This document shows, in pieces, positions 1 to 61,562 of a stretch of 64,000 nt of DNA; within the stretch, counting starts at the first letter, position 1, and every line of letters begins with the position of its first letter. The stretch is taken from the IMG/VR virus record IMGVR_UViG_3300023184_000088, positions 1 through 64,000 of that record; one strand, given 5' to 3'. Source of the DNA: an uncultured virus (IMG/VR IMGVR_UViG_3300023184_000088) (lineage: Duplodnaviria > Heunggongvirae > Uroviricota > Caudoviricetes). Both the position numbers and the translations under genes were made by a program. Below the pieces are notes generated by a model that saw nothing but the letters and a program-made list of their open reading frames with translations, did not search any database and was not told the DNA's origin.

Positions 1-2620
1 CGCTAGAACCGCTAGACCCAGAAGTCCCTCTAGTCCCTGAAGTTCCTGAAGAACCGCTAGTTCCGGATGTACCACTAGAACCTGAAGTTCCTTTAGTTCC
101 ATCTGTTTCACCACTTGTTCCGCTTGTTCCTGAAGTTCCGCTAGTACCTTTAGTACCATCTGTCTCACCGCTTGTTCCTGAAGTACCTGAAGTACCTGAA
201 GTTCCATTAGTTCCGGATTTACCGCTAGAACCTGAAGTTCCTTTAGTCCCTGAAGTTCCTGAAGAACCGCTAGTCCCGGATGTTCCACTAGAACCTGAAG
301 TTCCTTTAGTCCCATCTGTCTCACCGCTTGTTCCGCTTGTTCCCGACGTTCCTTTAGTACCATCTGTCTCACCACTTGTTCCGCTTGTTCCTGAAGTTCC
401 GCTTGTTCCTGAAGTTCCGCTAGAACCGCTAGACCCAGAAGTCCCTCTAGTCCCTGAAGTTCCTGAAGAACCGCTAGTTCCGGATGTACCACTAGAACCT
501 GAAGTTCCTTTAGTTCCATCTGTTTCACCACTTGTTCCGCTAGTCCCTGAAGTACCTTTAGTACCATCTGTCTCACCACTTGTTCCGCTTGTTCCTGATG
601 TTCCGCTTGTCCCTGATGTTCCGCTAGAACCGCTAGAGCCTGAAGTTCCTTTAGTCCCTGACGAACCTGAAGTCCCGCTAGAACCTGAAGTCCCTGAAGT
701 CCCTGAAGTACCTTTAGTACCATCTGTCTCACCACTTGTTCCTGAAGTTCCGCTTGTTCCTGAAGTTCCGCTTGTTCCTGAAGTTCCGCTAGAACCGCTA
801 GACCCAGAAGTCCCTCTAGTCCCTGAAGTTCCTGAAGAACCGCTAGTTCCGGATGTACCACTAGAACCTGAAGTTCCTTTAGTTCCATCTGTTTCACCAC
901 TTGTTCCGCTAGTCCCTGAAGTTCCGCTAGTTCCTGAAGAACCACTAGAACCTGAAGTTCCTTTAGTACCTGAAGAACCGCTTGTTCCTGAAGAACCGCT
1001 AGTACCTGAAGAACCACTAGAACCTGAAGTTCCTTTAGTACCGTCTGTTTCACCACTTGTTCCGCTAGTTCCTGAAGTTCCGCTAGTTCCTGAAGAACCA
1101 CTAGAACCTGAAGTTCCTTTAGTACCTGAAGAACCGCTTGTTCCTGAAGAACCGCTAGTCCCTGATGTACCACTAGAACCTGAAGTTCCTTTAGTACCAT
1201 CTGTCATACCACTAGTTCCGCTAGTTCCTGAAGTTCCGCTAGTTCCTGAAGAACCACTAGTTCCTGAAGAACCACTAGAACCTGAAGTTCCTTTAGTACC
1301 TGAAGAACCGCTTGTTCCTGAAGAACCGCTAGTCCCTGATGTTCCACTAGAACCTGAAGTTCCTTTAGTACCATCTGTCATACCACTAGTTCCACTAGTT
1401 CCACTAGTTCCACTTGTTCCACTAGAACCTGAAGTTCCTTTAGTACCTGAAGAACCACTTGTTCCTGAAGAACCACTTGTCCCTGAAGAACCACTTGTCC
1501 CTGAAGAACCACTAGTTCCTGAAGAGCCACTAGTTCCTGAAGTTCCTGAAGAACCGCTAGTACCTGAAGAACCGTTAGTTCCTGAAGTTCCTGAAGAACC
1601 GCTAGTTCCTGAAGTTCCTGAAGTTCCTGAAGAACCGCTAGTCCCTGAAGTTCCTGAAGAACCGCTAGTACCTGATGTTCCACTAGACCCTGATGTTCCT
1701 GAAGAACCTGATGTTCCAGAAGTTCCTTTAGTCCCTGATGAACCAGAAGTTCCGCTAGACCCTGAAGAACCTGCTGCTCCTGACGCTCCATCAAGATTTG
1801 TAACCCATGAAGAAAAATCTCCAGTACCATTTATAACGGTTACGGTAACTTGTAAATCACCTGTTGATGCGGAGTAAGATATAACATCACAAAGAAATTT
1901 ATTTGTGTTAGAATTGGCAATAATTAAATGTTGTCCTATTGTGTAAGATAATCCTGTTGATGTAGTTAATGATAATGTCTGGCCACTAACTAAAGTTGAT
2001 AAGTTTATATAATTAGTTGATTGTCCAATAACCCCTAAACTAGTTCCTGAAGAACCATCAGAACCTGAAGAACCTGAAGAACCTGAAGTCCCACTTGTTC
2101 CTGATGAACCTGATGTTCCGCTAGTGCCTGATGAACCAGATGTTCCGCTAGTACCTGAAGAGCCACTTGTTCCTGAAGAGCCACTTGTTCCTGATGAACC
2201 TGAAGTCCCGCTAGACCCAGATGTTCCGTCAATTCCGCTCGTCCCGCTAGACCCAGATGTTCCGTCAATTCCGCTTGTCCCACTAGAACCCGATGTTCCG
2301 TCGATTCCGCTTGTCCCACTAGAACCCGATGTTCCGTCGATTCCGCTTGTACCGCTAGACCCCGATGTTCCACTTTCTCCTGAAGTTCCTGCAGTACCAT
2401 TTGACGACCCTGAGGTTCCGCTAGCACCACTAGAACCTGTTGCTCCTGAAGAACCACTAGTCCCTGAAGAGCCGCTAGCACCACTAGAACCTGTTGCTCC
2501 TGAAGAACCACTAGTTCCTGAAGAGCCGCTAGAACCTGAAGTTCCTTTACCCGAAGAACCACTTGAACCCGAAATTCCTGAAGTACCGCTAGTTCCATCA
2601 ACACCTGTTAAATTAATAGG
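1..2620. repeat. Coding low-complexity tandem repeat (9-nt units) with larger block duplications
   Basis: Units such as cctgaagtt/ccgctagtt/ccacttgtt; a ~120-nt block recurs starting at 1, 418 and 787. Confidence 0.95.
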
Positions 2621-3253
2621 TATTGTTGCACCATCATTTCTAAATAAATCTAATCTAGATGTTGCGGAAAAATAAGTACCCCCCGTAACATATATATCTT
2701 GTATTGCTGTTGCAAATTTTCTCCATCTGGCGTTGATTCTAGTAACCCCGTTAATACCTTCAATCGTGGAACCTGTCCAAGTATTAATAAGTGATTGACC
2801 TTCCGGCGAATTGTTTTTTACTGTTGTTCCGAAATCGGATATAACGACAGTGTCGCCACCAGGTCCTGAAGCTCCTAAAGCGTCAGACCATAATGTGTTA
2901 TAATTATCTATTGAGAATTGATATACTTGGTCTGTTTCATAAACATAAACCAACATACCCAATCGTCGTCTACCTGATGAAATATTATCAGAATTTAATG
3001 TTATTGTGTCAAATGAAAATGAAGAATTAATTCCTTTATAAAATTGAATAGGAATAGTATTACCTGAATATTCAATATCCCCTGTATTTCCAAGAGGTAT
3101 TACATAAATTAAATCATTTAAGGTGTAAACCTCCATAAAACCACCCGTATTTAAAACACTAAATGTTGTTCCAAATGTGCTGGTTCTTGTTGAAGATATA
3201 CCCCCTACAGCGATTAAAGGAGTTAATGGATTTTTATAATTTAAGTTAGACAT
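1..3253 (-). CDS. Large Gly-Ser/Thr triplet-repeat putative tail fibre/virion protein, >1084 aa, runs off the left edge (absent from ORF track)
   Basis: ATG at 3253 (MSNLNYKNPLTPLIAVGG...). The same frame reads (GTS/GSS)n below ~2620 and at the window edge, with a non-repetitive insert at ~1790-2040. Confidence 0.9.
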   Translation of the reverse strand, partial: MSNLNYKNPLTPLIAVGGISSTRTSTFGTTFSVLNTGGFMEVYTLNDLIYVIPLGNTGDIEYSGNTIPIQFYKGINSSFSFDTITLNSDNISSGRRRLGMLVYVYETDQVYQFSIDNYNTLWSDALGASGPGGDTVVISDFGTTVKNNSPEGQSLINTWTGSTIEGINGVTRINARWRKFATAIQDIYVTGGTYFSATSRLDLFRNDGATIPINLTGVDGTSGTSGISGSSGSSGKGTSGSSGSSGTSGSSGATGSSGASGSSGTSGSSGATGSSGASGTSGSSNGTAGTSGESGTSGSSGTSGIDGTSGSSGTSGIDGTSGSSGTSGIDGTSGSSGTSGIDGTSGSSGTSGSSGTSGSSGTSGSSGTSGTSGSSGTSGTSGSSGTSGTSGSSGSSGSDGSSGTSLGVIGQSTNYINLSTLVSGQTLSLTTSTGLSYTIGQHLIIANSNTNKFLCDVISYSASTGDLQVTVTVINGTGDFSSWVTNLDGASGAAGSSGSSGTSGSSGTKGTSGTSGSSGTSGSSGTSGTSGSSGTSGTSGSSGTSGTSGTSGSSGTSGTNGSSGTSGSSGTSGTSGSSGTSGSSGTSGSSGTSGSSGTSGSSGTKGTSGSSGTSGTSGTSGTSGMTDGTKGTSGSSGTSGTSGSSGTSGSSGTKGTSGSSGSSGTSGSSGTSGTSGTSGTSGMTDGTKGTSGSSGTSGTSGSSGTSGSSGTKGTSGSSGSSGTSGTSGTSGTSGETDGTKGTSGSSGSSGTSGSSGTSGSSGTKGTSGSSGSSGTSGTSGTSGTSGETDGTKGTSGSSGTSGTSGSSGTSGTRGTSGSSGSSGTSGTSGTSGTSGTSGTSGETDGTKGTSGTSGTSGSSGTSGSSGTKGTSGSSGSSGTSGTSGTSGTSGTSGETDGTKGTSGTSGTSGETDGTKGTSGSSGTSGTSGSSGTSGTRGTSGSSGSSGTSGTSGTSGTSGTSGETDGTKGTSGTSGTSGETDGTKGTSGSSGTSGTSGSSGTSGTKGTSGSSGKSGTNGTSGTSGTSGTSGETDGTKGTSGTSGTSGTSGETDGTKGTSGSSGTSGTSGSSGTSGTRGTSGSSGSS

Positions 3254-28622: not shown

Positions 28623-30332
28623 TTATAATTCTAATCGATATTTAAATAACCCACAATCCCATATTTTGTCATAACCCAGTTCAGATGTGAGTTCTTTTTC
28701 CGTTTTATTATAGTCTAAATCCGGAAATCTTTTTTTAAGATTATTTTTACCAAATCCAAATTTATGAAATCTTTTATATTTACTAATTTTTGAATTATAA
28801 TAATAATAATTTGGTTTTGTTATTGATACTAAATTAAACCCCAAATTAGTATATAGATTATTTTCCGGATTAATTGTCCATCTTCTATCCGCAAAACTAA
28901 TTATTGATGTTGGGTTATACTCATTAATAAAATGTTTAATAAATTTAGAGGCTAACCCTCTAATTAAATAATTTTGTTTTGTTGCGTATCGACTTAATTC
29001 AAATTCACCGTCATTATTTTTAGTCATATTTCTATGACTATTAAATGTTATAACACCAACTAATTCATTATTATAATACGCCCCGTAATATATGTTTGAC
29101 TTATCGGTGCCTTGTATATGATTATTATTTAAAAAAAATGTTTTATCTTCTAAATTTATTTTTTTAATGACAACATTTCTACCACCAATTTTAACACCAT
29201 CATTCACATTTAATAAATGTTTTAATTTTGATTTAACTAATTCAGTATTTACAACCCATTCATCCTCAAAAATATGTATTAATTTATACCCTATTTGATT
29301 ACACTCTATTGTTTTATTTAGATGATATGATGAAGTTTTTCCCATTTTTTCTGTGTGATAATATAATCCATCATACTCAATACAAATATTGGTACCATCA
29401 ACAATCAAATCAATTTCTTTACCATCTAATAATTTACGATTTTTACCTTTATTAACCATAAACCCAACACTTTCAATAAACTCTTTAATCTCCGTCTCAC
29501 CTTTTGATGTCCAAGTAGGTGTCATATTAATGTTTGTTAGTTTCGCTAAATCACTTAAACATTCAGAAATAGATGTTGAAACTATTTTTTCATTAGGATA
29601 TTTTAATTTATATTCTAATGTTGTGATATTATGTTTATTTTTTAAATGAGTGTTTGATATACTTTTCATTTTTTCGCCACAAATTTTACAAATAACATAA
29701 TTTTTACTTTTAGATAAAAATTTGGTTAATTCTGTTTTTTTTATATAATTTGGGTGATGTTTAATATCTTCAGGGAATTTTAATAAATAATCGTCTAATG
29801 TTATTTTATGAGATTTACTTATATGTGTCTCAAAACAACCTGTTTTATTTGAAGTGTCTTCTGTTACCCATTCACATAATTTACATTTTCTTGTAGGAGA
29901 ATTTTCAATCTTAATTATGTTGAAATATTCCTCAAACCACTTTTTGTTGTTAATTAATTCGTATTTTTTTCTTTGGTAAGTATTGGATGGAATCCATACA
30001 TCTCCATATAACTCAATAATATGTTTGGTTAATTTACCGGATAAATTATTGGGGTCTTTAATTACTACATTAGTTTTTTTACATTGTGCAATTAATTCGT
30101 GGGTATCTGATGTTGTGTATAAATTAGATTTTGTAGATTCAATTTCAAAACTATTACCCATTTGGTTTTGACCACCCTTTTTATTAATCACAACATTATT
30201 TTCTTTTAATATTTGACTAATTTTTTTATGACCAACTTTAAATTTTTCAGCTAATTTATGAGTACTCGGAATTTCAGTTTGATATAATTCAATAATATTA
30301 ATCATATTTTCAGGGGTTAATTTGGTTTTCAT
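28623..30332 (-). CDS. Putative free-standing homing endonuclease: Zn fingers + PD-(D/E)xK nuclease + GNAT/Mom-like domain
   Basis: CKLC...H, CKICGEKMKSISNTHLKNKH; EIDL...IEYDGLYYH; ELSRYAT...ISFADRRW...LYTNLGF...IWDCG. Confidence 0.7.
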   Translation of the reverse strand: MKTKLTPENMINIIELYQTEIPSTHKLAEKFKVGHKKISQILKENNVVINKKGGQNQMGNSFEIESTKSNLYTTSDTHELIAQCKKTNVVIKDPNNLSGKLTKHIIELYGDVWIPSNTYQRKKYELINNKKWFEEYFNIIKIENSPTRKCKLCEWVTEDTSNKTGCFETHISKSHKITLDDYLLKFPEDIKHHPNYIKKTELTKFLSKSKNYVICKICGEKMKSISNTHLKNKHNITTLEYKLKYPNEKIVSTSISECLSDLAKLTNINMTPTWTSKGETEIKEFIESVGFMVNKGKNRKLLDGKEIDLIVDGTNICIEYDGLYYHTEKMGKTSSYHLNKTIECNQIGYKLIHIFEDEWVVNTELVKSKLKHLLNVNDGVKIGGRNVVIKKINLEDKTFFLNNNHIQGTDKSNIYYGAYYNNELVGVITFNSHRNMTKNNDGEFELSRYATKQNYLIRGLASKFIKHFINEYNPTSIISFADRRWTINPENNLYTNLGFNLVSITKPNYYYYNSKISKYKRFHKFGFGKNNLKKRFPDLDYNKTEKELTSELGYDKIWDCGLFKYRLEL

Positions 30333-47129: not shown

Positions 47130-49181
47130 ATGATAGAATCTATGGATGGTAACGAAGGAAGAGGTAAGAACACAAGTGTTTCCGAATCAGCAACACCAGT
47201 GTTAGACAATTTTAGTCGAGATTTAATAAAATTGGCTGAAGAAGGGAAATTAGACCCTGTTATTGGTAGAGAAAGTGAAATTACGAGAATTGCCCAAATT
47301 CTTTCTCGTAGAAAGAAAAATAACCCAATTATTATTGGAGAACCTGGTTGTGGTAAAACCGCAATCGTTGAGGGTCTTGCAATTAAAATCTATAATGGGG
47401 ATTGTCCAAGAAACTTAATGGACAAAAGAATCGTATCATTAGATATGACATCAATCGTTGCAGGAACAAAGTATCGTGGTCAATTTGAAGAACGAATGAA
47501 AGTAATTATAGAAGAATTACAAAACGCACCAAACATCATCGTATTCATTGATGAGATTCATACCATCGTTGGAGCAGGGAATTCATCAGGGTCAATGGAC
47601 GCATCAAACATCTTTAAACCAGCTCTTGCTCGTGGGGAAATCCAATGTGTTGGAGCAACAACATTAGATGAATATAGAAAAAACTTTGAAAAAGATGGAG
47701 CGTTAGAAAGACGTTTTCAAAAAGTTGTTGTTGATTCACCAAGCAAAGAAGAGACATTACTTATCTTGGAAAACTCAAAAGATAAATACGAATCTTACCA
47801 CAAGGTAACCTATTCCAATGAGATTTTAAATCTATGTGTTGATTTAGCGGAAAGATATATCACCGATAGAGAATTTCCGGATAAAGCGTTTGACATCTTG
47901 GATGAGGTTGGTGCGAGAAGTCAGGTAGAGATTAAAACTCCGGACTCAATAGAAAAGTTGAAACTCCAAGCATTCGATATTAAACAACAAAAAATGGATG
48001 TTGTTAAACGACAAGATTATGAGGAAGCCGCAAATCTTCGTGATAAAGAAAAAAGAGTCTTAAATAAACTTGAATCTGAAAAGAAAAAGTTTGAAGAAGA
48101 ACTCCTTACAAATAAAAAAGAAATCACCATTGATTTGGTTTATGAGGTTGTATCCAATATTACCAAAATTCCAATCACCAAATTAAACTCTGATGAGACT
48201 AAATTATTATCCGAAATGGAAGTTAATTTATCAGATAAAGTTATTGGACAATCTGATGCAGTTTCAAAAATTGCCAAGTCAATTAGAAGAAGTAGAATTG
48301 GGATTAAAGACCCAAACAAACCAATTGGTTCATTTATCTTTTTAGGGTCAACCGGTGTTGGTAAAACATATTTAGCAAAACAACTCGCCAAACAAATGTT
48401 CGGTAGTGAGGATAATATGATTCGTGTGGATATGTCAGAATACCAAGAAAAACATACCATATCAAGATTAATCGGAGCACCTAGCGGATATGTTGGGTAT
48501 GAGGATGGGGGACAACTAACCGAACAGGTTAAAAATAAACCATATTCTGTTATTCTATTTGATGAGGTTGAGAAAGCTCATAAAGATATTTTCTCCACAC
48601 TTCTTCAAGTATTGGATGAAGGACACCTAACCGATAGTTTAGGGAAAAAAATCAATTTCAAAAATTGTGTGATTATTATGACCTCAAATGTTGGAGCAAA
48701 AAAATTACAAGATTTTGGTTCAGGTGTTGGTTTTAAAACTGGGTCAAGTACCTATGTTGAGGAAGAATATCGTAGAGATGTTTTGAAAAAGGAATTAAAG
48801 AAATTCTTTACTCCGGAATTTTTAAATCGTGTAGACGAGATTGTAATCTTTAATTCTTTAGTGAAAGAAGATGTTAAAAAAATTGTGAAATTAGAATTGG
48901 ACATCCTAACTAATAGATTAATTGGAATGAAATACGACATCACTTTTGATGGTAGTGTTTTAGATTTAATATCTGATGTTGGATTCGATGAAACCTACGG
49001 AGCAAGACCAATTAAACGAGCTATCCAAGACAAACTTGAGGATTTTGTGTCAGAGGAGATTATAAAAGGAACTGTGGTTGAAAACACCCCATACACAATT
49101 ATCTCTGTGGATAAAGAAATTAAATTTCAAGAAGTTGTAGAAGTTGTGAAAAAGACAAGAAAGAAAAAGGGGGATGTATAA
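47130..49181 (+). CDS. clpC: ClpC-like AAA+ unfoldase lacking the N-terminal Clp-repeat domain
   Basis: Two AAA modules (GEPGCGKT, GSTGVGKT), UVR-like middle domain, VGF putative ClpP-docking loop. Confidence 0.9.
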   Translation: MIESMDGNEGRGKNTSVSESATPVLDNFSRDLIKLAEEGKLDPVIGRESEITRIAQILSRRKKNNPIIIGEPGCGKTAIVEGLAIKIYNGDCPRNLMDKRIVSLDMTSIVAGTKYRGQFEERMKVIIEELQNAPNIIVFIDEIHTIVGAGNSSGSMDASNIFKPALARGEIQCVGATTLDEYRKNFEKDGALERRFQKVVVDSPSKEETLLILENSKDKYESYHKVTYSNEILNLCVDLAERYITDREFPDKAFDILDEVGARSQVEIKTPDSIEKLKLQAFDIKQQKMDVVKRQDYEEAANLRDKEKRVLNKLESEKKKFEEELLTNKKEITIDLVYEVVSNITKIPITKLNSDETKLLSEMEVNLSDKVIGQSDAVSKIAKSIRRSRIGIKDPNKPIGSFIFLGSTGVGKTYLAKQLAKQMFGSEDNMIRVDMSEYQEKHTISRLIGAPSGYVGYEDGGQLTEQVKNKPYSVILFDEVEKAHKDIFSTLLQVLDEGHLTDSLGKKINFKNCVIIMTSNVGAKKLQDFGSGVGFKTGSSTYVEEEYRRDVLKKELKKFFTPEFLNRVDEIVIFNSLVKEDVKKIVKLELDILTNRLIGMKYDITFDGSVLDLISDVGFDETYGARPIKRAIQDKLEDFVSEEIIKGTVVENTPYTIISVDKEIKFQEVVEVVKKTRKKKGDV

Positions 49182-49234: not shown

Positions 49235-50056
49235 TTAAAACTTATAAAAATATTTTGAATCTGTTTTATATAGATATTTTTTATATCCCAAATCCTGAAT
49301 CATCTTTTTACCCGTCTCTATTCCATTATAAACATCCTCAACAACCACATACTCATTTCTTGTGTGATAGTCGTAATAACCTATCGCAAAATTGATACAG
49401 GAGAAGTCAAATAGGTTCTTCAGAGCATAAACATCAGTATATGGATTTGAAAAGTATTCTTGTTCACCTTTAAAGTTTTCTGTTAAGACATTATCACAGG
49501 TCTTAAAAAATTCACTCTCTCGGTCAAACAATTGTGTTCCCATACAAAATTCTGTAACCATTCTGTTTCCTGGTGCATCAAATTGAATTCCGTATCCAAC
49601 ATTTATAAAGAAGTCAGGGTTTGCTTTTTTGGACCCGTGACATCCGGTTTCTTCAGATACAAAGAAAGCAGCCTTTAGATTTGGTAATTCTTTTAATAAT
49701 TCCAAACAAGCATAAACACCACATTTGTCATCACCACCAATACCGGTTGGATTTCCAAAATCGTTATAAGCCTTTAAAGCTGGTTTGAGTTCATATTGAT
49801 TGTTCTGTAACATCTCCTCACGAATATTTATCGTGTCTATGTTATGAACCGTATCTGTATGAGCAATAACACAGGGAAAATAATCTATAAATTCGTCTGT
49901 TTGTTTTGTTGCGTAGATATTATTATGTTCATCCACATTAAAGGGAATTCCATTTTCTTCTAACCAATTGATTAGAAATTCTACCATAAGGTCTTCTTGA
50001 TATGTTTTTGTCGGAACCGACAATACATCTTTTAATAATTGATAATTTCTTTCCAT
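49235..50056 (-). CDS. Zn-dependent peptidase, M20/M28 clan
   Basis: AHTDTV, GGDDKCG, SEETGCHG, GYYDYH. Confidence 0.85.
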   Translation of the reverse strand: MERNYQLLKDVLSVPTKTYQEDLMVEFLINWLEENGIPFNVDEHNNIYATKQTDEFIDYFPCVIAHTDTVHNIDTINIREEMLQNNQYELKPALKAYNDFGNPTGIGGDDKCGVYACLELLKELPNLKAAFFVSEETGCHGSKKANPDFFINVGYGIQFDAPGNRMVTEFCMGTQLFDRESEFFKTCDNVLTENFKGEQEYFSNPYTDVYALKNLFDFSCINFAIGYYDYHTRNEYVVVEDVYNGIETGKKMIQDLGYKKYLYKTDSKYFYKF

Positions 50057-50097: not shown

Positions 50098-51459
50098 TTA
50101 ATTTATTCTAACAAAACCCTCAAATAATTCGGGTGAAACTAAAAAGTTATTAAATTCTTCTTCGGTATAACTTCTACGAGCAACACCAGTTTTAGTGAAA
50201 ACATCCATGTGTATTCTATTTGTTTCGGGGTCAATTTCTCTAATAAAAAATTCTCTACCATACGAAGTCTTACTTCTAGTATTAAGTGGGTATTTAGAGA
50301 TAACTCTATCGTAGATATTTGAGTATTCTAAAATATCCACATACTTATCAGATTCTTCTAATTCCTCAAGTATTTCATCTAATTCTTCACCTATAACAAT
50401 ATTAAGTCGTTCTTCATCAAAATCATTACATTGTATTTCATATCTATATTCATCCCATCCACCAGTATTAAATGTGTGACCAATGTCTGTTAAAACACCA
50501 TTGATATTTTTGGTGGGGTCTTGACTAATCTTGAACATTGATAATAAAAGACCAACAGTAGTATAATAAGTTCTAAAACAATCTATGTTGATTAACCCAT
50601 AATTTTGGAAAATTTCACAAATTTCATCCTTAATTTGTTTTTTAGCCTCATCGTGACGACACCCATTTTCAAGGTCCACATATTCTTCTAACATACTTTC
50701 AATTTGACCACCAAACATATCCATCAATTTTTCAGCAGCCTTTTCTTTGGTTTCCTCGCCATCTAACGAAATTAAATCAGGTGAAATATATTTTAAAATC
50801 TGTTTTAATTTAACCTTATTTTCATCTGAAAACCAACCGAAAAAATACCCCCCTTGCCAATCATCGGCGGCTACATTATAATCAACATAATCATATGTGT
50901 CGCCGTAATATGAAAATAATCTATCCACATAATAAACATCTTCTTCTTCAACCTGAAATAATTTAACATAATCCGAAATTTCATCAAAACGTAATTTGAT
51001 TGTACTTTTACCTGGATTTTTTTCATTGTAATTAAATTTATAAACTAAATCGTCAGCACCTTCCATTTCATTAGATGACACCGGTTCACCATTCTTAACC
51101 TTAACCAATAATTCATAAATTGGACTATAACCAATTATGGGTTCAAGTTCCGATTTAACTTCATCAGGTAACTCATGAAATAATTCTTTTCTATCAATAA
51201 GCCTATATCTCATAACCTCACTACCCAAATAAAGTATTTCATTATCGGGGCCTTTATGAATAACATATATTTGGATAGGTTCTTTATCTTTATCAATAAT
51301 AAAGTAAGTATCTCCATCCCGAAATTCATCCCATTTAGATTTTATCGAAGGAGGAGCGTAATATATAAAAGAATCGTAATCCATTGGTTCAACAATTAAC
51401 CAATCGTCATTGTCAAATATTGTTTTAAATTCCCCGTGAGAGTCGTTTTTATCGGGCAT
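50098..51459 (-). CDS. Hypothetical acidic protein
   Basis: 453-aa ORF. Confidence 0.75.
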   Translation of the reverse strand: MPDKNDSHGEFKTIFDNDDWLIVEPMDYDSFIYYAPPSIKSKWDEFRDGDTYFIIDKDKEPIQIYVIHKGPDNEILYLGSEVMRYRLIDRKELFHELPDEVKSELEPIIGYSPIYELLVKVKNGEPVSSNEMEGADDLVYKFNYNEKNPGKSTIKLRFDEISDYVKLFQVEEEDVYYVDRLFSYYGDTYDYVDYNVAADDWQGGYFFGWFSDENKVKLKQILKYISPDLISLDGEETKEKAAEKLMDMFGGQIESMLEEYVDLENGCRHDEAKKQIKDEICEIFQNYGLINIDCFRTYYTTVGLLLSMFKISQDPTKNINGVLTDIGHTFNTGGWDEYRYEIQCNDFDEERLNIVIGEELDEILEELEESDKYVDILEYSNIYDRVISKYPLNTRSKTSYGREFFIREIDPETNRIHMDVFTKTGVARRSYTEEEFNNFLVSPELFEGFVRIN

Positions 51460-51536: not shown

Positions 51537-51949
51537 GGGAGTGACACGGAATTGACTATTCGTAATAGTTATTTGGGGCACGTAGTGAGATGTTCTCTAT
51601 CACTTAAATCTATGGGCACAACAATTTAGACGGAAACGTTTTAAACAAAATGGCTCTAGTAGGTCTTGTACGTCAAGATGAGCTTGTGAACGTAGCGTAA
51701 GCAAACACACATTGGGGTCGACAGACAGATGCACCTAGCAACAGAACTGTCTTAAGGTGTAATACCACCAGAAGATGTATTAGGAGTCTCGTTCAGGGGT
51801 CTACTCCAACACAAGTGAACCCGACACAGTTATTGGTGACGATGTCAAAATAGGAACCAAATATTTGTCAGTTGAGAATTAACTGAATAAACGTGTAGTC
51901 CTTAATAGGTAATACAAGTAACACCGGAGTTCGAGTCTCCGCACTTCCA
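51537..51949 (+). ncRNA. ssrA: tmRNA; predicted tag (A)GNVLNKMALVGLVRQDELVNVA at 51632-51700
   Basis: 5' GGGAGTG pairs with 3' CACTTCC-A including G3-U; GGAATTGAC D-like segment; T-arm CGGAG TTCGAGT CTCCG; UAGAC before the resume codon; smpB nearby. Confidence 0.93.
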
Positions 51950-51956
51950 CAAAAAG

Positions 51957-52434: not shown

Positions 52435-52872
52435 CTATTTCAAGTCTCTCTTCATATCTCTTTCAATATCCCGAGATTTAATACTATCTCGTTTATCGTG
52501 TATCTTCTTCCCTTTGGCAAGAGCAATTTCCATTTTAATTAATCCGGTTTCATTTATGAAGACACGATAAGGAACGATGGTTACACCATTGATTAACTCA
52601 TTCTCCCACTTATTAAGTTCTTTTCGTTTGGCCAATAGTTTTCTATCCTTTACGGTCTCGTGGAAGGACCCAAACCCATAATCGGAGATATTCATCCCCT
52701 TTATAAATAACTCCCCGTTATTGAAATAACAATACCCTTCAGAGATGGATACCTTCCCCTGACGAATGGACTTTACCTCTGAACCAACTAGTTTGATTCC
52801 CACAATTAGTGTCTGTAGGAATGAATACTCAAACTTGGCTTTCTTATTGACTATGTTAATTGAATTTTTCAT
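52435..52872 (-). CDS. smpB: SsrA-binding protein SmpB (145 aa; true start 52872)
   Basis: NKKAKFEY...GIKLVGSEVKSIR...RKLL...KGKKIHDKR. Confidence 0.95.
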   Translation of the reverse strand: MKNSINIVNKKAKFEYSFLQTLIVGIKLVGSEVKSIRQGKVSISEGYCYFNNGELFIKGMNISDYGFGSFHETVKDRKLLAKRKELNKWENELINGVTIVPYRVFINETGLIKMEIALAKGKKIHDKRDSIKSRDIERDMKRDLK

Positions 52873-52902
52873 TGGACAAAGATAATATAAAAATTGATAT
52901 AA

Positions 52903-52937
52903 ACAAAAAAAGGTGATACAAATTAATGTATCACCTT
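52903..52937 (-). terminator. Terminator of the large ncRNA
   Basis: AAGGTGATACA...TGTATCACCTT then T-tract on minus strand. Confidence 0.85.
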
Positions 52938-53823
52938 CTTGGCTAATTAGGTTGAGATTAAACCTATTATTGAGAATCTTTAAAAGGATTATTAGTTCCC
53001 TCTGTATCCACACCCTTTTGGGATGTAATCCTCAGTGACGATTGGTTAGACCAATCACTCCTCGAGTCGTAAATTACTCTCTTATTACTACACTCTCTTT
53101 AATCTTGCGAACTAATTAATCCTTGCGGGATTAGAGGTTTTTGGTAAGAATACACATCAACTTGCGGTCTTTGTGTGCTATGGACGGCCCATAACTAAGT
53201 AGTCACCTTGTCATCTACGACTGACAGACACTTTTGCTTTTTTCTGTTTAGTTTTTCACCATGTTGAAAATAGTAATTGTGTTGTGGATGTGTCGAAGAA
53301 GGGGTCTGTCGTAAGCTTCGCTATCTTTTGGACAACAAAATACTAACCTCCTCCGTGTAATGTCCCCATTACGAAATTTCAAGTGTAGTTCATATCAACA
53401 TCTTGGTAGATGTTTGATAGGGATAAAATCGACACCACTCGTTCTTTATCTTACCTTTCGGTTTTAACTCAACTCTTATTTTGGAACCCGCAATTACATA
53501 TTTGGAAATATGTTTCTTACTTGGTTCCTATGGGTTATTCTTATTGGTGTTCCCACCTCAACCGGACAATCCACATTGCCAAGTTAGTATTCCATTTCCC
53601 TACGAAGTTATCCTCGGTACTACAGGACTACTAATATCCCACTTGCTTACTCGAGTTCGGTTTCCCAAACCCCAAAATTAGTAACACAACTAATTTCGGT
53701 TTATCCTGCTTTCGCAGTTTATTTAAAGATGATAAGCCACCTATTATCTTTGATACAACACCGAAGTGTTATAATGGATAATCTAAAATTTCTAAGAACG
53801 TCTTTAAGGTTTCCCTTAATTGT
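52903..53823 (-). ncRNA. Large (~920 nt) highly structured ncRNA, probably GOLLD-like
   Basis: Own promoter (TACCTTTG 53835-53828) and terminator (52903-52937); no credible ORF; many GNRA-capped hairpins; adjacent to tRNA genes. Confidence 0.7.
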
Positions 53824-53887
53824 TTTACAAAGGTAAGTGATTTTTTTCATTTGTCAAGCACTTTATAAAACTTTTTTTTAAAAAATA

Positions 53888-53981
53888 AAATGTGTTGTGT
53901 AAGCTCTACCACTGCAGCTAAACCTTGGTCACCAGGATTACGGTTGTTGGAATCGAACCAACGACTCTACACGACACATTT
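53888..53981 (-). ncRNA. Circularly permuted tRNA-like RNA (YrlA-like topology), copy 2
   Basis: Terminal stem AAATGTGTCGTGTA/TACACAACACATTT; T-arm GTTGG TTCGATT CCAAC precedes a closed acceptor-like stem and the D-arm GCTGC AGTGGTA GAGC. Confidence 0.75.
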
Positions 53982-53985
53982 ATAG

Positions 53986-54076
53986 TGGTATCAACGGGAC
54001 TCGAACCTGTGACACAGGGTTTTTCAGAACCCTTGCTCTACCAAGGGAAATAAATCTCCCACTGAGCTATAATACC
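53986..54076 (-). tRNA. tRNA-Phe(GAA)-like gene with a hairpin inserted in the D-loop and an 8-nt anticodon loop
   Basis: Acceptor GGTATTA/TGATACC-A; D-arm GCTC...TGGTA GAGC; anticodon stem AGGGT/ACCCT around TCTGAAAA; T-loop TTCGAGT; CCA not encoded. Confidence 0.8.
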
Positions 54077-54084
54077 ATATAAAA

Positions 54085-54168
54085 TAATGTGGGTGTATGC
54101 TCTACCATCTGAGCTACGGATTTGAAACCGGAGGGATTTGAAACCTCGACACAACACCCACACCATTA
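54085..54168 (-). ncRNA. Circularly permuted tRNA-like RNA (YrlA-like topology), copy 1
   Basis: Terminal stem TGTGGGTGT/ACACCCACA; T-arm GAGGT TTCAAAT CCCTC, closed CGG...CCG stem, TA, D-arm GCTC AGATGGTA GAGC. Confidence 0.75.
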
Positions 54169-54192
54169 ATTCAATGAACTTATTTTCTTCTA

Positions 54193-54224
54193 CAAAGATA
54201 ATACATTTATTTTAATCTGTCAAA
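54193..54224 (-). promoter_or_regulatory. Bacteroidota-type promoter for the tRNA/tRNA-mimic transcript
   Basis: TTTG...TATCTTTG on minus strand. Confidence 0.75.
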
Positions 54225-54240
54225 TCTTTTTTGATTTTTT

Positions 54241-57345: not shown

Positions 57346-58371
57346 CTACAATTTTTTAAATTCCGGTTTGATTAGATTCCATATAATTTCGGAGTAATCT
57401 TTACGGTCAAACATCCTAAATAAAATACCTGATAAATGTTTAGGTTGTTGTGATACCCACTCAGCATACTCTTTTCTATCTGTGATGGGTTCTTTGTCGT
57501 TATATTTACCATACATTTTACCATCAAATTTTTTACCAGCATCTTCAGATATTTGGAAATAAAAATACCTTAATTCTTTTACATAATTTTTAATTTTGGT
57601 GTAAAATTCATCCGGAACATCTTTTAATAATTCCATTACATCTTCACCATTTTTTAAATATTCCCATATACCTGTTGTAGACACATTGGTCATAATTTTA
57701 TGAAGACGAAGATACTCAACACCTTTTACTTTAACTCTATCTCCATTTGAGAACTTCACCACGAACCCCTCTTGGTCGTTTTTAACCATTTCTTTTAATT
57801 GTTGGTAGTCCTTGATACCATCGTATTTTTTAACCACATCAAAACCCCACTCATCCCAATCTGACATGTCATAATCTTTACCCCAATTATCGAATGCTCC
57901 CAATAGGACCAGTTTCTCTTCACCTTTATAATCCAAAACAATTCTGTTTTCCGGGTAGATAATCTCAAAACAAAATGTCATATGTCTAAACATTATGTCT
58001 GTATTGTATTTCTTTAAGAGTTCTCTCGCTTTGATTGCTTGGTCTGATGTAAATGAACCACGAGTGGCAACCACCCATTGACCTTCATACCAAAATACGA
58101 TACCTAATGAACCATCCATTTTTTCATAAACTTCAAAGGTTTCAGTAGGAGTATATTTTCCTTCCTCAATATTAAAGAATTTTTTAAATGGTGTTGCAAC
58201 AATATCTCCTTTGTCGTCAGTAACTAAACCTCTTGTACTAAGAGTCACCTCATCCCACAGGTTCTCGTACTGAACTTTTTCAGAGTAGTTCCATATGGTT
58301 AATGGGAGTGTTGGATGTACTTGTTTGTAAAGTAATCCGTCTTCGTAATATTTGTTTAGTTTTTCTAACAT
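57346..58371 (-). CDS. RNA ligase, T4 Rnl1-like
   Basis: RGLV, FKKFFN, EKMDGSLG (motif I), ATRGSF, FEII, EGFVV, RVKVK..EY. Confidence 0.9.
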   Translation of the reverse strand: MLEKLNKYYEDGLLYKQVHPTLPLTIWNYSEKVQYENLWDEVTLSTRGLVTDDKGDIVATPFKKFFNIEEGKYTPTETFEVYEKMDGSLGIVFWYEGQWVVATRGSFTSDQAIKARELLKKYNTDIMFRHMTFCFEIIYPENRIVLDYKGEEKLVLLGAFDNWGKDYDMSDWDEWGFDVVKKYDGIKDYQQLKEMVKNDQEGFVVKFSNGDRVKVKGVEYLRLHKIMTNVSTTGIWEYLKNGEDVMELLKDVPDEFYTKIKNYVKELRYFYFQISEDAGKKFDGKMYGKYNDKEPITDRKEYAEWVSQQPKHLSGILFRMFDRKDYSEIIWNLIKPEFKKL

Positions 58372-58375
58372 AATT

Positions 58376-58513
58376 TTATTTTTTCTTTTTCTTTTTTTTA
58401 ATAGGTCTTTCAGGTCTTTCTAAATATCTTGGGGGTAAAGGGATTTGTCTTCCCCCTCTGAATACACATCCATTTCCCATCATGAGGAAGGACCAAATAA
58501 ACCACCCTATCAT
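58376..58513 (-). CDS. Small 45-aa ORF, hydrophobic N-terminus and poly-Lys tail (absent from ORF track)
   Basis: ATGA overlap with the kinase stop; MIGWFIWSFLMMGNG...PIKKKKKKK. Confidence 0.5.
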   Translation of the reverse strand: MIGWFIWSFLMMGNGCVFRGGRQIPLPPRYLERPERPIKKKKKKK

Positions 58514-58902
58514 AATTTTATTTCAAATCTATCTTTCATTTGGACTAATTTATCCTCCGGAACTCCGTGTTCATTGACACCACCGTGTCTATTTTCCACA
58601 ATGATGGAGAATACTTTATACCCGTATTTTGCTGCCAAGTCATAATATGGTTGCATTTCCCACTCTTGTGTGAATGTATTAGACACCACAACTTTATGTT
58701 CGTATTTCATCAAAAAATCAACTTCTTCTTGACACCAAGCGTGAGCATCTTTAATTTCAGATGGTTTGAAATTATAATTTCCATCTCTATCCACAAAGAA
58801 CATATCGGCTTCTTTGACATACCCTTTATTACCGGCAATAGATTTTGCCAATGTTGATTTACCACTTCCTGGTAATCCTCTCAATAAAAATAACTCTTTC
58901 AT
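58510..58902 (-). CDS. P-loop kinase (AAA_33 / polynucleotide kinase-like)
   Basis: LRGLPGSGKST, EADMFF, VVVSNTF, HGVP. Confidence 0.85.
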   Translation of the reverse strand: MKELFLLRGLPGSGKSTLAKSIAGNKGYVKEADMFFVDRDGNYNFKPSEIKDAHAWCQEEVDFLMKYEHKVVVSNTFTQEWEMQPYYDLAAKYGYKVFSIIVENRHGGVNEHGVPEDKLVQMKDRFEIKL

Positions 58903-58903
58903 T

Positions 58904-59185
58904 TTAATTTTTTAAATATTTCACAATCTTTTCAATTCCTTCGGTATCATCCGAATTAATAATAAATTCATCAAACGCTCCGTACTTACATTGATAACCA
59001 AAAATATATTTCAAACCATAACTAACTCTTTCCCAAAAAGGTCGTTTAGTTAAATGAGTGTGGATATATACCATTGGATGTTTCACACCATCAATTTCGT
59101 CTTCATCATACATTACCACCATTTGATGTTCTGTGTTATGACAAGAACAGATGAATAAATCTTTTTGTGTTTGTTTAATTTTCAT
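58904..59185 (-). CDS. Hypothetical protein
   Basis: 93 aa with CSC..EH motif. Confidence 0.65.
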   Translation of the reverse strand: MKIKQTQKDLFICSCHNTEHQMVVMYDEDEIDGVKHPMVYIHTHLTKRPFWERVSYGLKYIFGYQCKYGAFDEFIINSDDTEGIEKIVKYLKN

Positions 59186-59678
59186 GTTTTTTTAATCTTT
59201 TTTTTATTTTTTTTAACACTATTTTATCATTCGCAGCATCTTTTAGTGAATTATATTTAGTGTAGGATTCTTTAGTTAGTTTTAATAACTCAATACTTTC
59301 TTCATCCGATAAATCAAATAAAATATGACCACAAATTACTTTTGTTATAAATCTATAAGTCGTAACTGTTGTCCAAAACTTTTTTAATCCAAAATATTTT
59401 GTCTTATAAATCTCATCCGCAGAACTATAATCCCACTGCGTATAAACTCTAATATCGGGTTCACCATCTTCAAATTTTAAAGTAAACTCCATTATATCGG
59501 GACTTATGTGTTCTGATTTGTCATAATTCTCTTTAACTTTAAACCGCTTTGTAACGTATGGTGATGGACTATAACTACCACAATATATGTGATTAGCAAA
59601 ATAACAATTGTGAAAAATATTTTCACCACCCACATTCTCTAATTCTTTGTGAATTAATTCTAAAATTTTTTCTTTCAT
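59175..59678 (-). CDS. Hypothetical protein
   Basis: Likely start MKEKIL overlapping the upstream stop. Confidence 0.65.
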   Translation of the reverse strand: MKEKILELIHKELENVGGENIFHNCYFANHIYCGSYSPSPYVTKRFKVKENYDKSEHISPDIMEFTLKFEDGEPDIRVYTQWDYSSADEIYKTKYFGLKKFWTTVTTYRFITKVICGHILFDLSDEESIELLKLTKESYTKYNSLKDAANDKIVLKKIKKRLKKHEN

Positions 59679-59938
59679 CTTATTTTTACTTCTATTAATT
59701 TTTTTCTTAACCATTCTTCATTAACATAATCCGGTCTTTCCCCCAAAATAATTTCATCTATTGTCTCCCCAAGGATTTCCATTAACATTGATTTAATTTC
59801 TGATGGAGCGTCCATTGGTACATATGAAAAACAATCTTGTATCATCTCGTAAGTCAATGGTACCTCAATAATCACTCGCTTGGGGATTAAATTCCCCTTT
59901 TCATCAAAATGGGATTCTTCAATTCTCGTGTTATACAT
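59675..59938 (-). CDS. Hypothetical protein
   Basis: Likely start MYNTRIEE right after the phosphoesterase stop. Confidence 0.6.
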   Translation of the reverse strand: MYNTRIEESHFDEKGNLIPKRVIIEVPLTYEMIQDCFSYVPMDAPSEIKSMLMEILGETIDEIILGERPDYVNEEWLRKKLIEVKIR

Positions 59939-59939
59939 A

Positions 59940-60602
59940 TTATTTTCTTTTTTTACCGTCTTCAGTTTCAATCTCATCCGTGTGGTGGTCAAATAACATA
60001 TCTGACACAATATCACGTTTATCCATTATTCTTATTATATCATCCATATCATATACTCCAAAATTTGGGTGACCATCCATACCAACATCCATTTTCTTAC
60101 CTTTACCAAATCTTAAATTTGTTGGTAAGTGAACGTGTCCATGGAGATGAATAACACCTCTATTCAAGTTCTCCCAAGAAGCTATTGGATAATGAAATAA
60201 TTCAAATGTTTTGAATTTGTATGTCATAATATCTGAACGAGAAACACTTGCAAATAACTCCTGACAATCACCTCTGTTGTTTTGAATGTGGTGGTCGTGA
60301 TTACCTAATATAAGGTGAATCTCTTTACACACAATTCTATCTCTGAATTTTTGGATGTTTTCAAATCCCCCGAAGCTCCAATCCCCAAGATGAATTAACA
60401 CATCATCTTCACCAACAACACTATTAATGTTATTAACGATTGTTTCGTTCATCTGTTCTATTGTATTAAAATCTCTCGTTTGAGATATCGGAATACTACC
60501 ATCAGGGAGACGCCATTCGGTCACTCCTCTACATATGTTTTTGTGTCCGTAGTGTGTATCGGACGTAACAAAAACTTTTCTATCTTTATCTATCTTAATC
60601 AT
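59940..60602 (-). CDS. Calcineurin-like metallophosphoesterase
   Basis: SDTHYGH, HLGD, GNHD, FHYP, HGHVH. Confidence 0.9.
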   Translation of the reverse strand: MIKIDKDRKVFVTSDTHYGHKNICRGVTEWRLPDGSIPISQTRDFNTIEQMNETIVNNINSVVGEDDVLIHLGDWSFGGFENIQKFRDRIVCKEIHLILGNHDHHIQNNRGDCQELFASVSRSDIMTYKFKTFELFHYPIASWENLNRGVIHLHGHVHLPTNLRFGKGKKMDVGMDGHPNFGVYDMDDIIRIMDKRDIVSDMLFDHHTDEIETEDGKKRK

Positions 60603-61092
60603 ACTGCAAATGTAGTTCTTTTTTTCCAAACCAAAAAGGTTTTTCTCTATTTTTCCAAGAGGCTAAATTAATTTTAGCACCCATATAATAATTTCTATAA
60701 GATTCCACAACAGAATCCACCTTAAACTCATCCGGCATTGCCATTGCTGGTTGAGTAAAACCAATATCCGGAATGTTTGGTTTATTAATGATACACCAAT
60801 TAATCACATCTATTGATTTGTGTCTTTTACCATACCTGTGGGTATATTCCTTCCCAAGTTCTAACCCCAATTCACACAAATACAAATAATTTGATAAACT
60901 CTGACGAGCCCACACCGCACAAGGGTGATTTTTATGAGACAACTTGTACGGTACTTGGTCGTTAACTTGGTCGGTTACGTGATGAACGCTACATAATAAT
61001 TGAGCGGTTTCCAAAATCATTTTCACTACGTGTTTATCTACGTGGTATTGAGCCGATAGTTTAGGATTCTCATCCAAGAAAAATATATTCAT
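60595..61092 (-). CDS. Pyrimidine-dimer DNA glycosylase (endonuclease V)-like protein
   Basis: MNIFFLD, DKHVVKMILETAQLL, HKNHPCAVW, EYTHRYGKRH, YRNYY. Confidence 0.8.
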   Translation of the reverse strand: MNIFFLDENPKLSAQYHVDKHVVKMILETAQLLCSVHHVTDQVNDQVPYKLSHKNHPCAVWARQSLSNYLYLCELGLELGKEYTHRYGKRHKSIDVINWCIINKPNIPDIGFTQPAMAMPDEFKVDSVVESYRNYYMGAKINLASWKNREKPFWFGKKELHLQYD

Positions 61093-61562
61093 TATACATG
61101 TGGTATTTTGACTCTTACACAAGTTTGTGCTTGACCCTCGTTCATATAAAAATTATTTAAATAACCCATAATATTTGCACTTCCAATTGGATTAGCCGAA
61201 TGAACATATACAGTTGGAAAAACAAATTTATCTATTTTTCTCTCACTTCTTGTCATATTAAACCTTCCCTCGTTTGTATTGTGGAATAATGCAACCAAGA
61301 ATTTGGCAGCATCATATCCGGTTTTTTCGTTAATATTGTTATAATCCAAAGTATAGTTCGGAGAAACATTACCATAATACTCTTTCATCGCAGAATCACC
61401 TAAATCGTGGTCCAGGGAGATTGTACTAACATTTTCTAAACCAATTTTGTTAACTTCGTTAACAAATTCATCATAATCTCTAACAACAACCCAATCATCT
61501 CCGGTTGGAGTTCTTACATCATCGAGATAAATTCTACAAGTTGTTTTCATATTATTTTCCAT
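61092..61562 (-). CDS. Cyclic-phosphate-processing receiver-like domain protein
   Basis: IYLDDVRTP, ISLDHDLG, TGYD, VHSANPIG. Confidence 0.75.
   Translation of the reverse strand: MENNMKTTCRIYLDDVRTPTGDDWVVVRDYDEFVNEVNKIGLENVSTISLDHDLGDSAMKEYYGNVSPNYTLDYNNINEKTGYDAAKFLVALFHNTNEGRFNMTRSERKIDKFVFPTVYVHSANPIGSANIMGYLNNFYMNEGQAQTCVRVKIPHV

Follow-up and report, generated by a model that had tools for sequence, protein, structure and literature searches.

The minus-strand interval 52907-53823 of the investigated DNA is, with high confidence, a free-standing GOLLD RNA gene of an uncultured T4-like jumbo phage of ~300 kb, whose host is probably a freshwater member of the Bacteroidota. GOLLD RNAs are among the largest non-coding RNAs of bacteria and phages and have been known since 2025 to form RNA-only cages larger than the ribosome. 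The RNA described here is an ordinary member of this known giant phage RNA family and adds no new kind of molecule. Its layout within the window, i.e., the complete analysed stretch of 64,000 nt, is as follows:

52907-53823 (-): whole GOLLD RNA gene, ~917 nt including the terminator hairpin, both ends predicted from the sequence
53356-53823 (-): GOLLD 5' domain of 468 nt (the cap domain in solved cages), recognized by blastn and covariation
52949-53355 (-): conserved 3' domain, coextensive with the Rfam model RF02032
53222-53293 (-): variable single-stranded linker (J13/15 region), Rfam alignment positions 63-136

Counted from the predicted transcription start near 53823 to the end of the model match at 52949, the RNA measures ~875 nt, and ~917 nt with its terminator, in agreement with a family length of about 800 nt upward.

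The assignment is based on the GOLLD covariance model of Rfam 15 (RF02032), which matches 52949-53355 (-) over its entire length (model positions 1-416 of 416) with 321.8 bits (gathering score, 150; E = 2.3e-91). This result bears out a preliminary description of the DNA, which had guessed at GOLLD and had called for an Rfam scan that also included ROOL, RNase P and group I/II introns. None of these other models has a match at gathering level in the window or at E <= 1 in 52850-53900. In the same interval further families are absent at E <= 0.5, and at E <= 1 only RT-6 appears with 17.4 bits, which is chance level. The whole window contains three gathering-level matches, namely GOLLD, a tmRNA at 51537-51952 (+) and a tRNA at 53986-54076 (-). 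Two close relatives (L005, L073) and a phage of 634 kb (L123) have RF02032 scores of 287-323 bits. A blastn search with the 921 nt of 52903-53823 against 50,697 phage records retrieved a lone partial match (LR745206.1), and cultured phages gave zero.

The earlier impression of a GC-elevated stretch with no credible ORF proved accurate: no ORF within 52903-53823 is longer than 74 aa, and the GC content amounts to 0.377 in 53001-54000 versus about 0.30-0.34 in most adjacent kilobases. The 917-nt RNA folds with an MFE z-score of -6.4, and none of 20 shuffles folds as well. This z-score, the Rfam E-value and a covariation signal that beats all of 500 shuffles (see below) jointly place the signal beyond chance.

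Because the Rfam model spans the conserved 3' domain only, the remaining 468 nt (53356-53823) were tested separately. Relatives were collected from IMG/VR with a pattern of the conserved 3' domain, which provided at least 121 loci; 80 of those listed come with up to 6 kb of flanking sequence. The 5' domain has blastn matches in at least 76 loci, with 66-80% identity except in two near-identical relatives. These alignments show that dozens of lake-phage GOLLDs possess a 5' domain homologous to the 5' half of the RNA. The first ~70 nt are variable among the relatives and poorly aligned, and two hairpins of the preliminary description are located there, while the rest is conserved. Every hairpin named in that description was recovered on the minus strand. 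Those of the 5' domain and one distant loop contact are:

53817-53806 (-): AAGG-GAAA-CCTT hairpin
~53770-53757 (-): AACAC-TTCG-GTGTT hairpin
53737-53732 (-): hairpin loop GCUUAU (helix 2), pairing with the distant GUAAGC at 53650-53645 via six pairs
~53717-53706 (-): CTGC-GAAA-GCAG hairpin (helix 3), seen in the sequence and in alignment A1
~53669-53654 (-): GTTTGG-GAAA-CCGAAC hairpin
~53462-53453 (-): ACC-GAAA-GGT hairpin (helix 14), nearly invariant in alignment A1

Alignment A1 was established from the 70 listed loci with a long match, which were reduced to 44 by removal of near-duplicates and supplemented with the window (45 rows). The RNAalifold structure of A1 comprises 17 helices with 95 predicted pairs, 62 of which exhibit both-sided, compensatory changes; a lack of covariation in the helices had been named in the preliminary description as an argument against its own reading. 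The proportion of paired cells is 97.6% compared with 86.2% in shuffles, and none of the 500 shuffles reaches any of the five measures applied. When the 3' partners were shifted by 1-3 columns, 33-41% of the cells remained paired and the covariation score fell from 0.416 to values of 0.06-0.105. Deriving the structure from the same alignment on which it was scored favours it somewhat, yet the margin is large. One example is helix 3 with covariation at three of its four pairs and an invariant GAAA loop. Another example is the long-distance contact of helix 2, in which 100% of the cells are paired and two of the six pairs exhibit double changes. Its sequence is lineage-specific, with GCUUAU/GUAAGC in the window versus GUGUAU/GUACAC in most relatives.

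The 3' domain comprises a pseudoknot, the hairpins P21a and P21b and a terminal AGGUU-UAAUCUC-AACCU hairpin; the helix names P21a and P21b and the loop name L21a were assigned via the Rfam structure line and the text of a review (PMC12990946). All helices of this domain are kept in the RF02032 alignment with two non-standard pairs, both located in the first hairpin, and GUCAGUCGUAGAU and AAUUUACGACU provide the two strands of the pseudoknot. Two of the hairpins had already been noticed in the preliminary description:

~53142-53125 (-): TAATCC-CGCAA-GGATTA hairpin
52965-52949 (-): 3' hairpin AGGTT-TAATCTC-AACCT, at the place of the conserved terminal L27 hairpin

In env-38, L21a and L21b are symmetric kissing loops that close the cage. 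The window retains the loop L21a (CCCGCAAGG) with its self-complementary GC, as do at least 90% of 86 unique relatives. P21b forms a hairpin in the window, and its sequence UUAGUU-CGCAAG-AUUAA differs from that of the majority of relatives. The linker starts with the conserved element AUCCACAACACAA, which recurs in each of the 19 further GOLLD rows listed (of the 21 rows listed for this motif, one is an off-target regex catch). No tRNA was called inside the linker (53222-53293).

The available text of Kretsch et al. (PMC12286853) describes the env-38 GOLLD as a D7 14-mer cage, 380 Å across, with 5' domains as caps, 3' domains as rings and the linker disordered inside; it also mentions tRNAs in some GOLLD linkers, ribosomes bound in pull-downs and phage-specific GOLLD expression. 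In the accessible portion of a 2026 review (PMC12990946), the GOLLD of Streptococcus agalactiae, which is devoid of P21b, is a 12-mer, and the linker of a mycobacterial GOLLD contains tRNA-Phe. By analogy with these solved relatives, the transcript would comprise two separately folded domains, of which the 5' one serves as cap and the 3' one as ring. Its copies would join via kissing loops and A-minor contacts, thereby forming a closed RNA-only cage of 12 to 14 subunits with the linker directed inward. Given that P21a and P21b are both present and that L21a is kept, we regard this two-domain fold and the self-assembly into a closed 12- to 14-mer as likely. The sequence of P21b is unlike that of most relatives, and the cage stoichiometry can therefore not be read off.

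The boundaries of the gene and its downstream neighbour are:

53828-53857 (-): GOLLD promoter, with TTGACA at 53857-53852, a 16-nt spacer and TACCTTTG at 53835-53828
52901-52940 (-): intrinsic terminator, consisting of a hairpin of 14 pairs (52940-52907) and a subsequent T run
52435-52872 (-): smpB (145 aa), Pfam SmpB E = 1.8e-46, directly after GOLLD

The promoter and the terminator agree with the bounds proposed in the preliminary description, and TACCTTTG represents what we take to be a Bacteroidota-style -7 box. The motif TTGAY-N(15-20)-TAnnTTTG precedes the 5' domain in 43 of the 59 distinct listed loci with 1 kb of upstream sequence; in those 43 loci, 737-908 nt separate its end from the downstream 3'-domain pattern, and its background elsewhere on the same strand is 0.04 per 350 nt. 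The 12-kb neighbourhood in the window contains two copies, one before GOLLD and one before a cluster of tRNA-like elements. At the position of the window's terminator, 9 of the 80 flanked listed relatives carry a tRNA-Met that starts 12 nt past the GOLLD 3' end. A tRNA just upstream of GOLLD is present in 11 of the 80 (tRNA-Met among the matches listed), and tRNAs are located within 6 kb in 48 of them.

The location of the RNA on the same strand and 35 nt upstream of smpB could also be explained by a cis-acting leader or regulator of this gene that does not exist as an independent RNA. This explanation is highly improbable, because GOLLD and smpB have the 14-pair terminator and a distinct TATCTTTG box between them, and because GOLLD is conserved without SmpB: the protein is found in 2 of 49 related GOLLD-bearing records and its gene directly after GOLLD in 5 of the 121 loci listed. 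The wording "directly upstream of smpB" of the preliminary description is thus correct for the window, but applies only to this lineage. The 192-aa GTG frame at 52435-53013 corresponds to smpB with its start placed too far upstream.

Upstream of the free-standing GOLLD gene, a tRNA and two tRNA mimics are located at a distance of 160-350 nt:

53875-54223 (-): promoter-led unit of three tRNA-shaped RNAs, with TTGACA at 54223-54218 and TATCTTTG at 54200-54193, ending in a T run
54078-54173 (-): YrlA-like mimic (element A), full-length RF02553 alignment with 41.0 bits
~53985-54076 (-): aberrant tRNA, Rfam tRNA match at gathering level
53875-53983 (-): second YrlA-like mimic (element C), full-length RF02553 alignment with about 26 bits (24.6-26.0)

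The minimum free energy fold of element A (54086-54171) exhibits a 10-pair stem with three hairpins, which correspond in order to the T arm, the closed acceptor-like stem and the D arm. This succession on a long closing stem is shared with YrlA RNAs, which are bacterial Y RNA-like tRNA mimics. Both mimics differ from YrlA in scoring below the RF02553 cut-off of 69 bits, in the Ro60 motif and in the gene complement of the phage fragment. The motif of the Ro60-binding helix of YrlA, given as GNCGAAN0-1G in the available text of PMC4201824, is absent: element A has AAUUAAUG at the corresponding positions, and the alignment of element C has gaps there. The TROVE (Ro60/Rsr) gene, next to which YrlA is encoded, has no match at E <= 0.1 in the 76.6-kb record, which represents ~26% of the genome. 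The two flanking mimics, with their permuted layout, are YrlA-like in shape only. Sub-threshold RF02553 matches are also present in 13 of 14 control genomes, and matches at E <= 1e-4 in 6 of these 14 compared with 4 of 49 related records, including the near-identical L005, thus indicating that the model is not specific and that mimic modules are rare in the clade. A regex search for further permuted tRNA-like modules proved uninformative: it returned five ordinary tandem-tRNA junctions at four loci without recovering the elements of the window itself.

The aberrant tRNA contains a six-pair hairpin inserted in its D loop, and the best reading of its anticodon arm is six pairs closed by CUGAAA. 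Its arms exhibit compensatory differences in comparison with L005, a relative without the second mimic. A pairing of the GOLLD linker with the YrlA-like stems, suggested by a common CACAACACA, was rejected: AUCCACRACACAA is kept in the 19 other GOLLD rows listed, most of them without those elements, which makes it a family feature of J13/15 and the resemblance a CA-rich coincidence.

Six metatranscriptomic runs contain 46-51% of the sampled words of the stretch. In all four runs examined, which stem from four studies and were chosen for containing the stretch, contigs cover parts of 52932-53791; three of them provide 20-24 contigs that are at least 99% alike. One contig of 612 nt extends over 52932-53542. 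The preliminary description had conceded that its reading would fail if the region were not transcribed as one RNA, and the contigs do cover the region, in the form of assembled sequence that carries no information on strand, ends or levels. Little or no contig cover in the four runs was found for smpB, orf121 and the sequence upstream of 54312, and such missing cover carries no evidence in either direction. Taken together, the GOLLD model match, the helix covariation and the RNA-library cover exclude the new giant RNA class that the preliminary description had offered as its alternative. The chance that the region is such a class, or a protein-coding or degenerate stretch, instead of GOLLD is negligible in view of the full-length model match, a longest ORF of at most 74 aa and covariation of the RNA type.

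One contig (X16; 727 nt, ~97% alike) spans 53513-54232 and thus crosses the proposed 5' end of GOLLD together with the whole tRNA-like cluster, which keeps a read-through precursor as a rival to the short transcript. Such a precursor of ~1.3 kb would start at the promoter 54223-54193 and continue through the three tRNA-like elements into GOLLD, and these elements would either be processing signals or remain attached. The unbroken contig bridging GOLLD and cluster agrees with this scenario, as do GOLLDs elsewhere that adjoin or embed tRNAs. However, a contig across two genes is no proof of a single transcript, and X16 extends beyond the upstream promoter and need not begin at a transcription start. 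A T run follows the second mimic, and a promoter of the same class is located between the two units and recurs in 43 of 59 listed relatives, most of them without the cluster. We accordingly regard the precursor as unlikely and the separately transcribed GOLLD gene as the better description.

The source virus record comprises 76.6 kb and is estimated to be 26% complete; four related records with 93-100% completeness have sizes of 274-304 kb, and the complete relatives sizes of 290-304 kb. A T4-type gp23 capsid, a gp20 portal and a large terminase are encoded in the window. The nearest cultured relatives of the major capsid protein are Flavobacterium and Microcystis phages with ~41% identity, which lend weak support to the probable freshwater Bacteroidota host. 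Further genes of the neighbourhood are:

47130-49181: ClpB/C-type double AAA ATPase
49235-50056: peptidase
50098-51459: orf453, a conserved neighbour of 453 aa
51537-51952 (+): phage tmRNA, RF00023 with 67.9 bits versus a cut-off of 47, predicted tag GNVLNKMALVGLVRQDELVNVA
57346-58371: Rnl1-type RNA ligase
58510-58902: polynucleotide-kinase-like ATPase
59940-60629: phosphoesterase
61092-61562: cyclic-phosphate-processing receiver-domain protein (cREC_REC)

The tmRNA was not called by ARAGORN. The best ESM Atlas score of orf453 (0.83) is at chance level, and Pfam and PHROGs provided no match for this protein. Across the 121 loci listed and the window, the neighbours of GOLLD include a Clp-type ATPase in 33, orf453 in 36, orf201 in 27 and the ligase in 12 cases, counts that may take in the window's own row (that of SmpB excepted). 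SmpB and the three odd tRNA-like RNAs flank GOLLD only in this lineage.

The linkage of GOLLD and tmRNA extends beyond the window. A tmRNA above the Rfam cut-off is present in 36 of 49 GOLLD-bearing related records; its distance from GOLLD is 0.2-3.5 kb in 34 of the 49 with a median of 1.3 kb (1.1 kb in the window), and more than 160 kb in two of the 36. At the locus of the 634-kb phage (L123), no tmRNA was detected within 3 kb. The 49 records represent one phage clade with a common gene order and several near-duplicates, and the counts are therefore not independent events. The linkage may be inherited synteny and not functional coupling. We found no mention of it in the literature searched, in which the texts naming both RNAs were covered in part, and a literature search for SmpB together with tmRNA in a jumbo phage had no match. 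If the linkage is functional, it would narrow the search for the role of GOLLD to translation rescue and tRNA handling, while mere synteny would turn the finding into routine annotation.

No function is shown for any GOLLD in the available texts of the literature searched. The presence of tmRNA, SmpB, a Clp-type unfoldase, tRNA mimics and tRNA-repair enzymes in the same island leads us to favour a role linked to translation. From this gene context we tentatively propose that the cage may serve the maintenance of phage translation, in which it would hold, shield or concentrate tRNA-shaped RNAs or ribosomal particles late in infection. A far more specific proposal, for which we see slim prospects, makes GOLLD the partner of ribosome-rescue and tRNA-mimic RNAs. 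The RNAs enclosed or organised by the cage would then be tmRNA-SmpB, both YrlA-like mimics and the aberrant tRNA, in which a GAAA-type hexaloop appears to take the place of the anticodon loop. Enclosed tRNA-shaped RNAs would be kept from host nucleases or delivered to stalled ribosomes, and the helix 2 contact (53737-53732 with 53650-53645) would represent an assembly code that separates the cages of co-infecting relatives. If correct, this would be the first function for a GOLLD RNA.

The tRNA-repair genes of T4 counter an anticodon nuclease. The vicinity of GOLLD to tRNA mimics and tRNA-repair genes would thus also suit a decoy or sponge, i.e., an abundant multivalent cage that absorbs host RNA-directed nucleases or defence sensors, and the phage-specific expression mentioned in the available text of PMC12286853 points in the same direction. 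Against this, no nuclease or defence partner is known, and the cage interior and the inward linker, as far as the accessible descriptions go, suggest enclosure over surface capture. A decoy is in our view a rather doubtful explanation, and the maintenance of phage translation is the role that we tentatively favour.

The present instance sets a typical lake-type GOLLD in a defined clade of ~300-kb T4-like phages with its own strong, conserved promoter, and a comparison with known systems, drawn from the available parts of the sources, delimits its position. ROOL, which forms 6- to 8-mer cages and occurs in phages and plasmids, is likewise a large, ornate, cage-forming phage-associated RNA near tRNAs, and its mode of action is similar as far as known, but its sequence and fold are unrelated and the window has no ROOL match. 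The mycobacterial GOLLD, situated in tRNA arrays, shares the association with tRNA-type genes; it carries a tRNA or pseudo-tRNA in J13/15, whereas the linker of the window is devoid of a tRNA and the tRNA-like RNAs are located upstream in a separate promoter-led unit. The GOLLD of S. agalactiae (700 nt; 12-mer, 3' domain alone 10-mer; PMC12990946) belongs to the same conserved 3'-domain family, but is devoid of P9, P11a-c and P21b, whereas the RNA of the window possesses P21b and a longer 5' domain. With env-38 (RF02032; 833 nt, PDB 9MEE according to PMC12990946), the RNA of the window shares the full match to the family model, the origin from an environmental aquatic phage and the adjoining tRNA-type genes. 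The two domains, here ~470 nt (5') and ~407 nt (3') and likened to those of env-38 via the model and the published descriptions, are common to both RNAs, and so are the retention of P21a and P21b as in the 14-mer and the A-rich variable linker. Distinctive features of the window are the lineage-specific P21b sequence, one covarying loop contact, a terminator of its own where some relatives carry tRNA-Met, and the flanking smpB and tRNA mimics.

The phage tmRNA of the window is encoded together with an SmpB protein close to GOLLD, the giant cage-forming phage RNA, and the genes of this region are arranged as follows.

47130-49181, plus strand: ClpB/C-type double AAA ATPase, adjoining the tmRNA region
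49235-50056, minus strand: M20/M42-like peptidase, likewise adjoining it
50098-51459, minus strand: 453-aa protein, downstream of GOLLD and kept in at least 36 loci
51537-51952, plus strand: phage tmRNA (Rfam, 67.9 bits)
52435-52872, minus strand: phage-encoded SmpB

The tmRNA was missed by ARAGORN; its predicted long tag, GNVLNKMALVGLVRQDELVNVA, resembles those read by this program in four of the six flanked relatives with an ARAGORN tmRNA call. A tmRNA is present in 36 of the 49 related GOLLD-bearing records and lies within 3.5 kb of GOLLD in 34 of them. SmpB is found in only two of the 49; the lineage of the window therefore has both members of the tmRNA-SmpB pair, while most relatives have the tmRNA alone. 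The ATPase is kept beside GOLLD in at least 33 loci, and together with the peptidase it may give the phage a pathway of its own for degrading tagged proteins. Searches of Pfam, PHROG and Atlas gave no lead for the 453-aa protein.

Upstream of GOLLD the minus strand carries a unit of tRNA-like RNAs, and each of the two non-coding RNA units has its own promoter, recognized by sequence motif (TTGACA-N16/17-TAnnTTTG).

53828-53857, minus strand: promoter of the GOLLD unit
53875-53983, minus strand: second tRNA mimic with permuted YrlA layout (26 bits)
53985-54076, minus strand: aberrant tRNA (ARAGORN call "undetermined")
54078-54173, minus strand: tRNA mimic with permuted YrlA layout (41 bits)
54193-54223, minus strand: promoter of the tRNA-like RNA unit

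Within 12 kb, this strong promoter class occurs only at these two units, and of 59 distinct relatives, 43 retain it upstream of GOLLD. The aberrant tRNA contains a six-pair hairpin (GGGAGA-UUUA-UUUCCC) inserted into its D loop, an anticodon arm readable as six pairs closed by a CUGAAA hexaloop, which places GAA where the anticodon would be, and A-CUA instead of CCA at its 3' end. Its structure is under selection, because compensatory differences from the near-identical relative L005 are located in the anticodon and T arms. Both mimics score below the Rfam threshold of 69 bits for YrlA, the Y RNA-like tRNA mimic family, and share the order long closing stem, T arm, closed acceptor-like hairpin and D arm. 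A Ro60 motif was not seen in either of them, nor was a TROVE gene found within the 76.6-kb fragment. The second mimic is absent from L005. The 634,780-bp genome of an uncultured phage (LR745206.1) harbors a GOLLD at 420.4-421.3 kb (287 bits) with two tRNAs directly upstream; its 5' domain is 75% identical to that of the window over a partial alignment of 220 nt.

Outside this region, three further loci were recorded.

2-3253, minus strand: open-ended ORF, 1084 aa or longer, with collagen triple-helix repeats (Pfam E = 3.6e-95)
28623-30332, minus strand: 569-aa protein, weakly matching ROS/MucR and REase_MTES_1575
57346-61562, minus strand: RNA-repair cluster

The collagen repeats form most of their protein, which is probably a fibre protein, and the local GC content is elevated (0.44-0.49). 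The gene of the 569-aa protein, which may be a nuclease-type insert among structural genes, adjoins the major capsid gene. The RNA-repair cluster is similar to the tRNA-repair set of T4, with a cyclic-phosphate-processing receiver-domain (cREC_REC) protein as an addition. Its other members are an Rnl1-type ligase, a polynucleotide-kinase-like ATPase, a Pyr_excise/DNA-binding protein and a calcineurin-like phosphoesterase.
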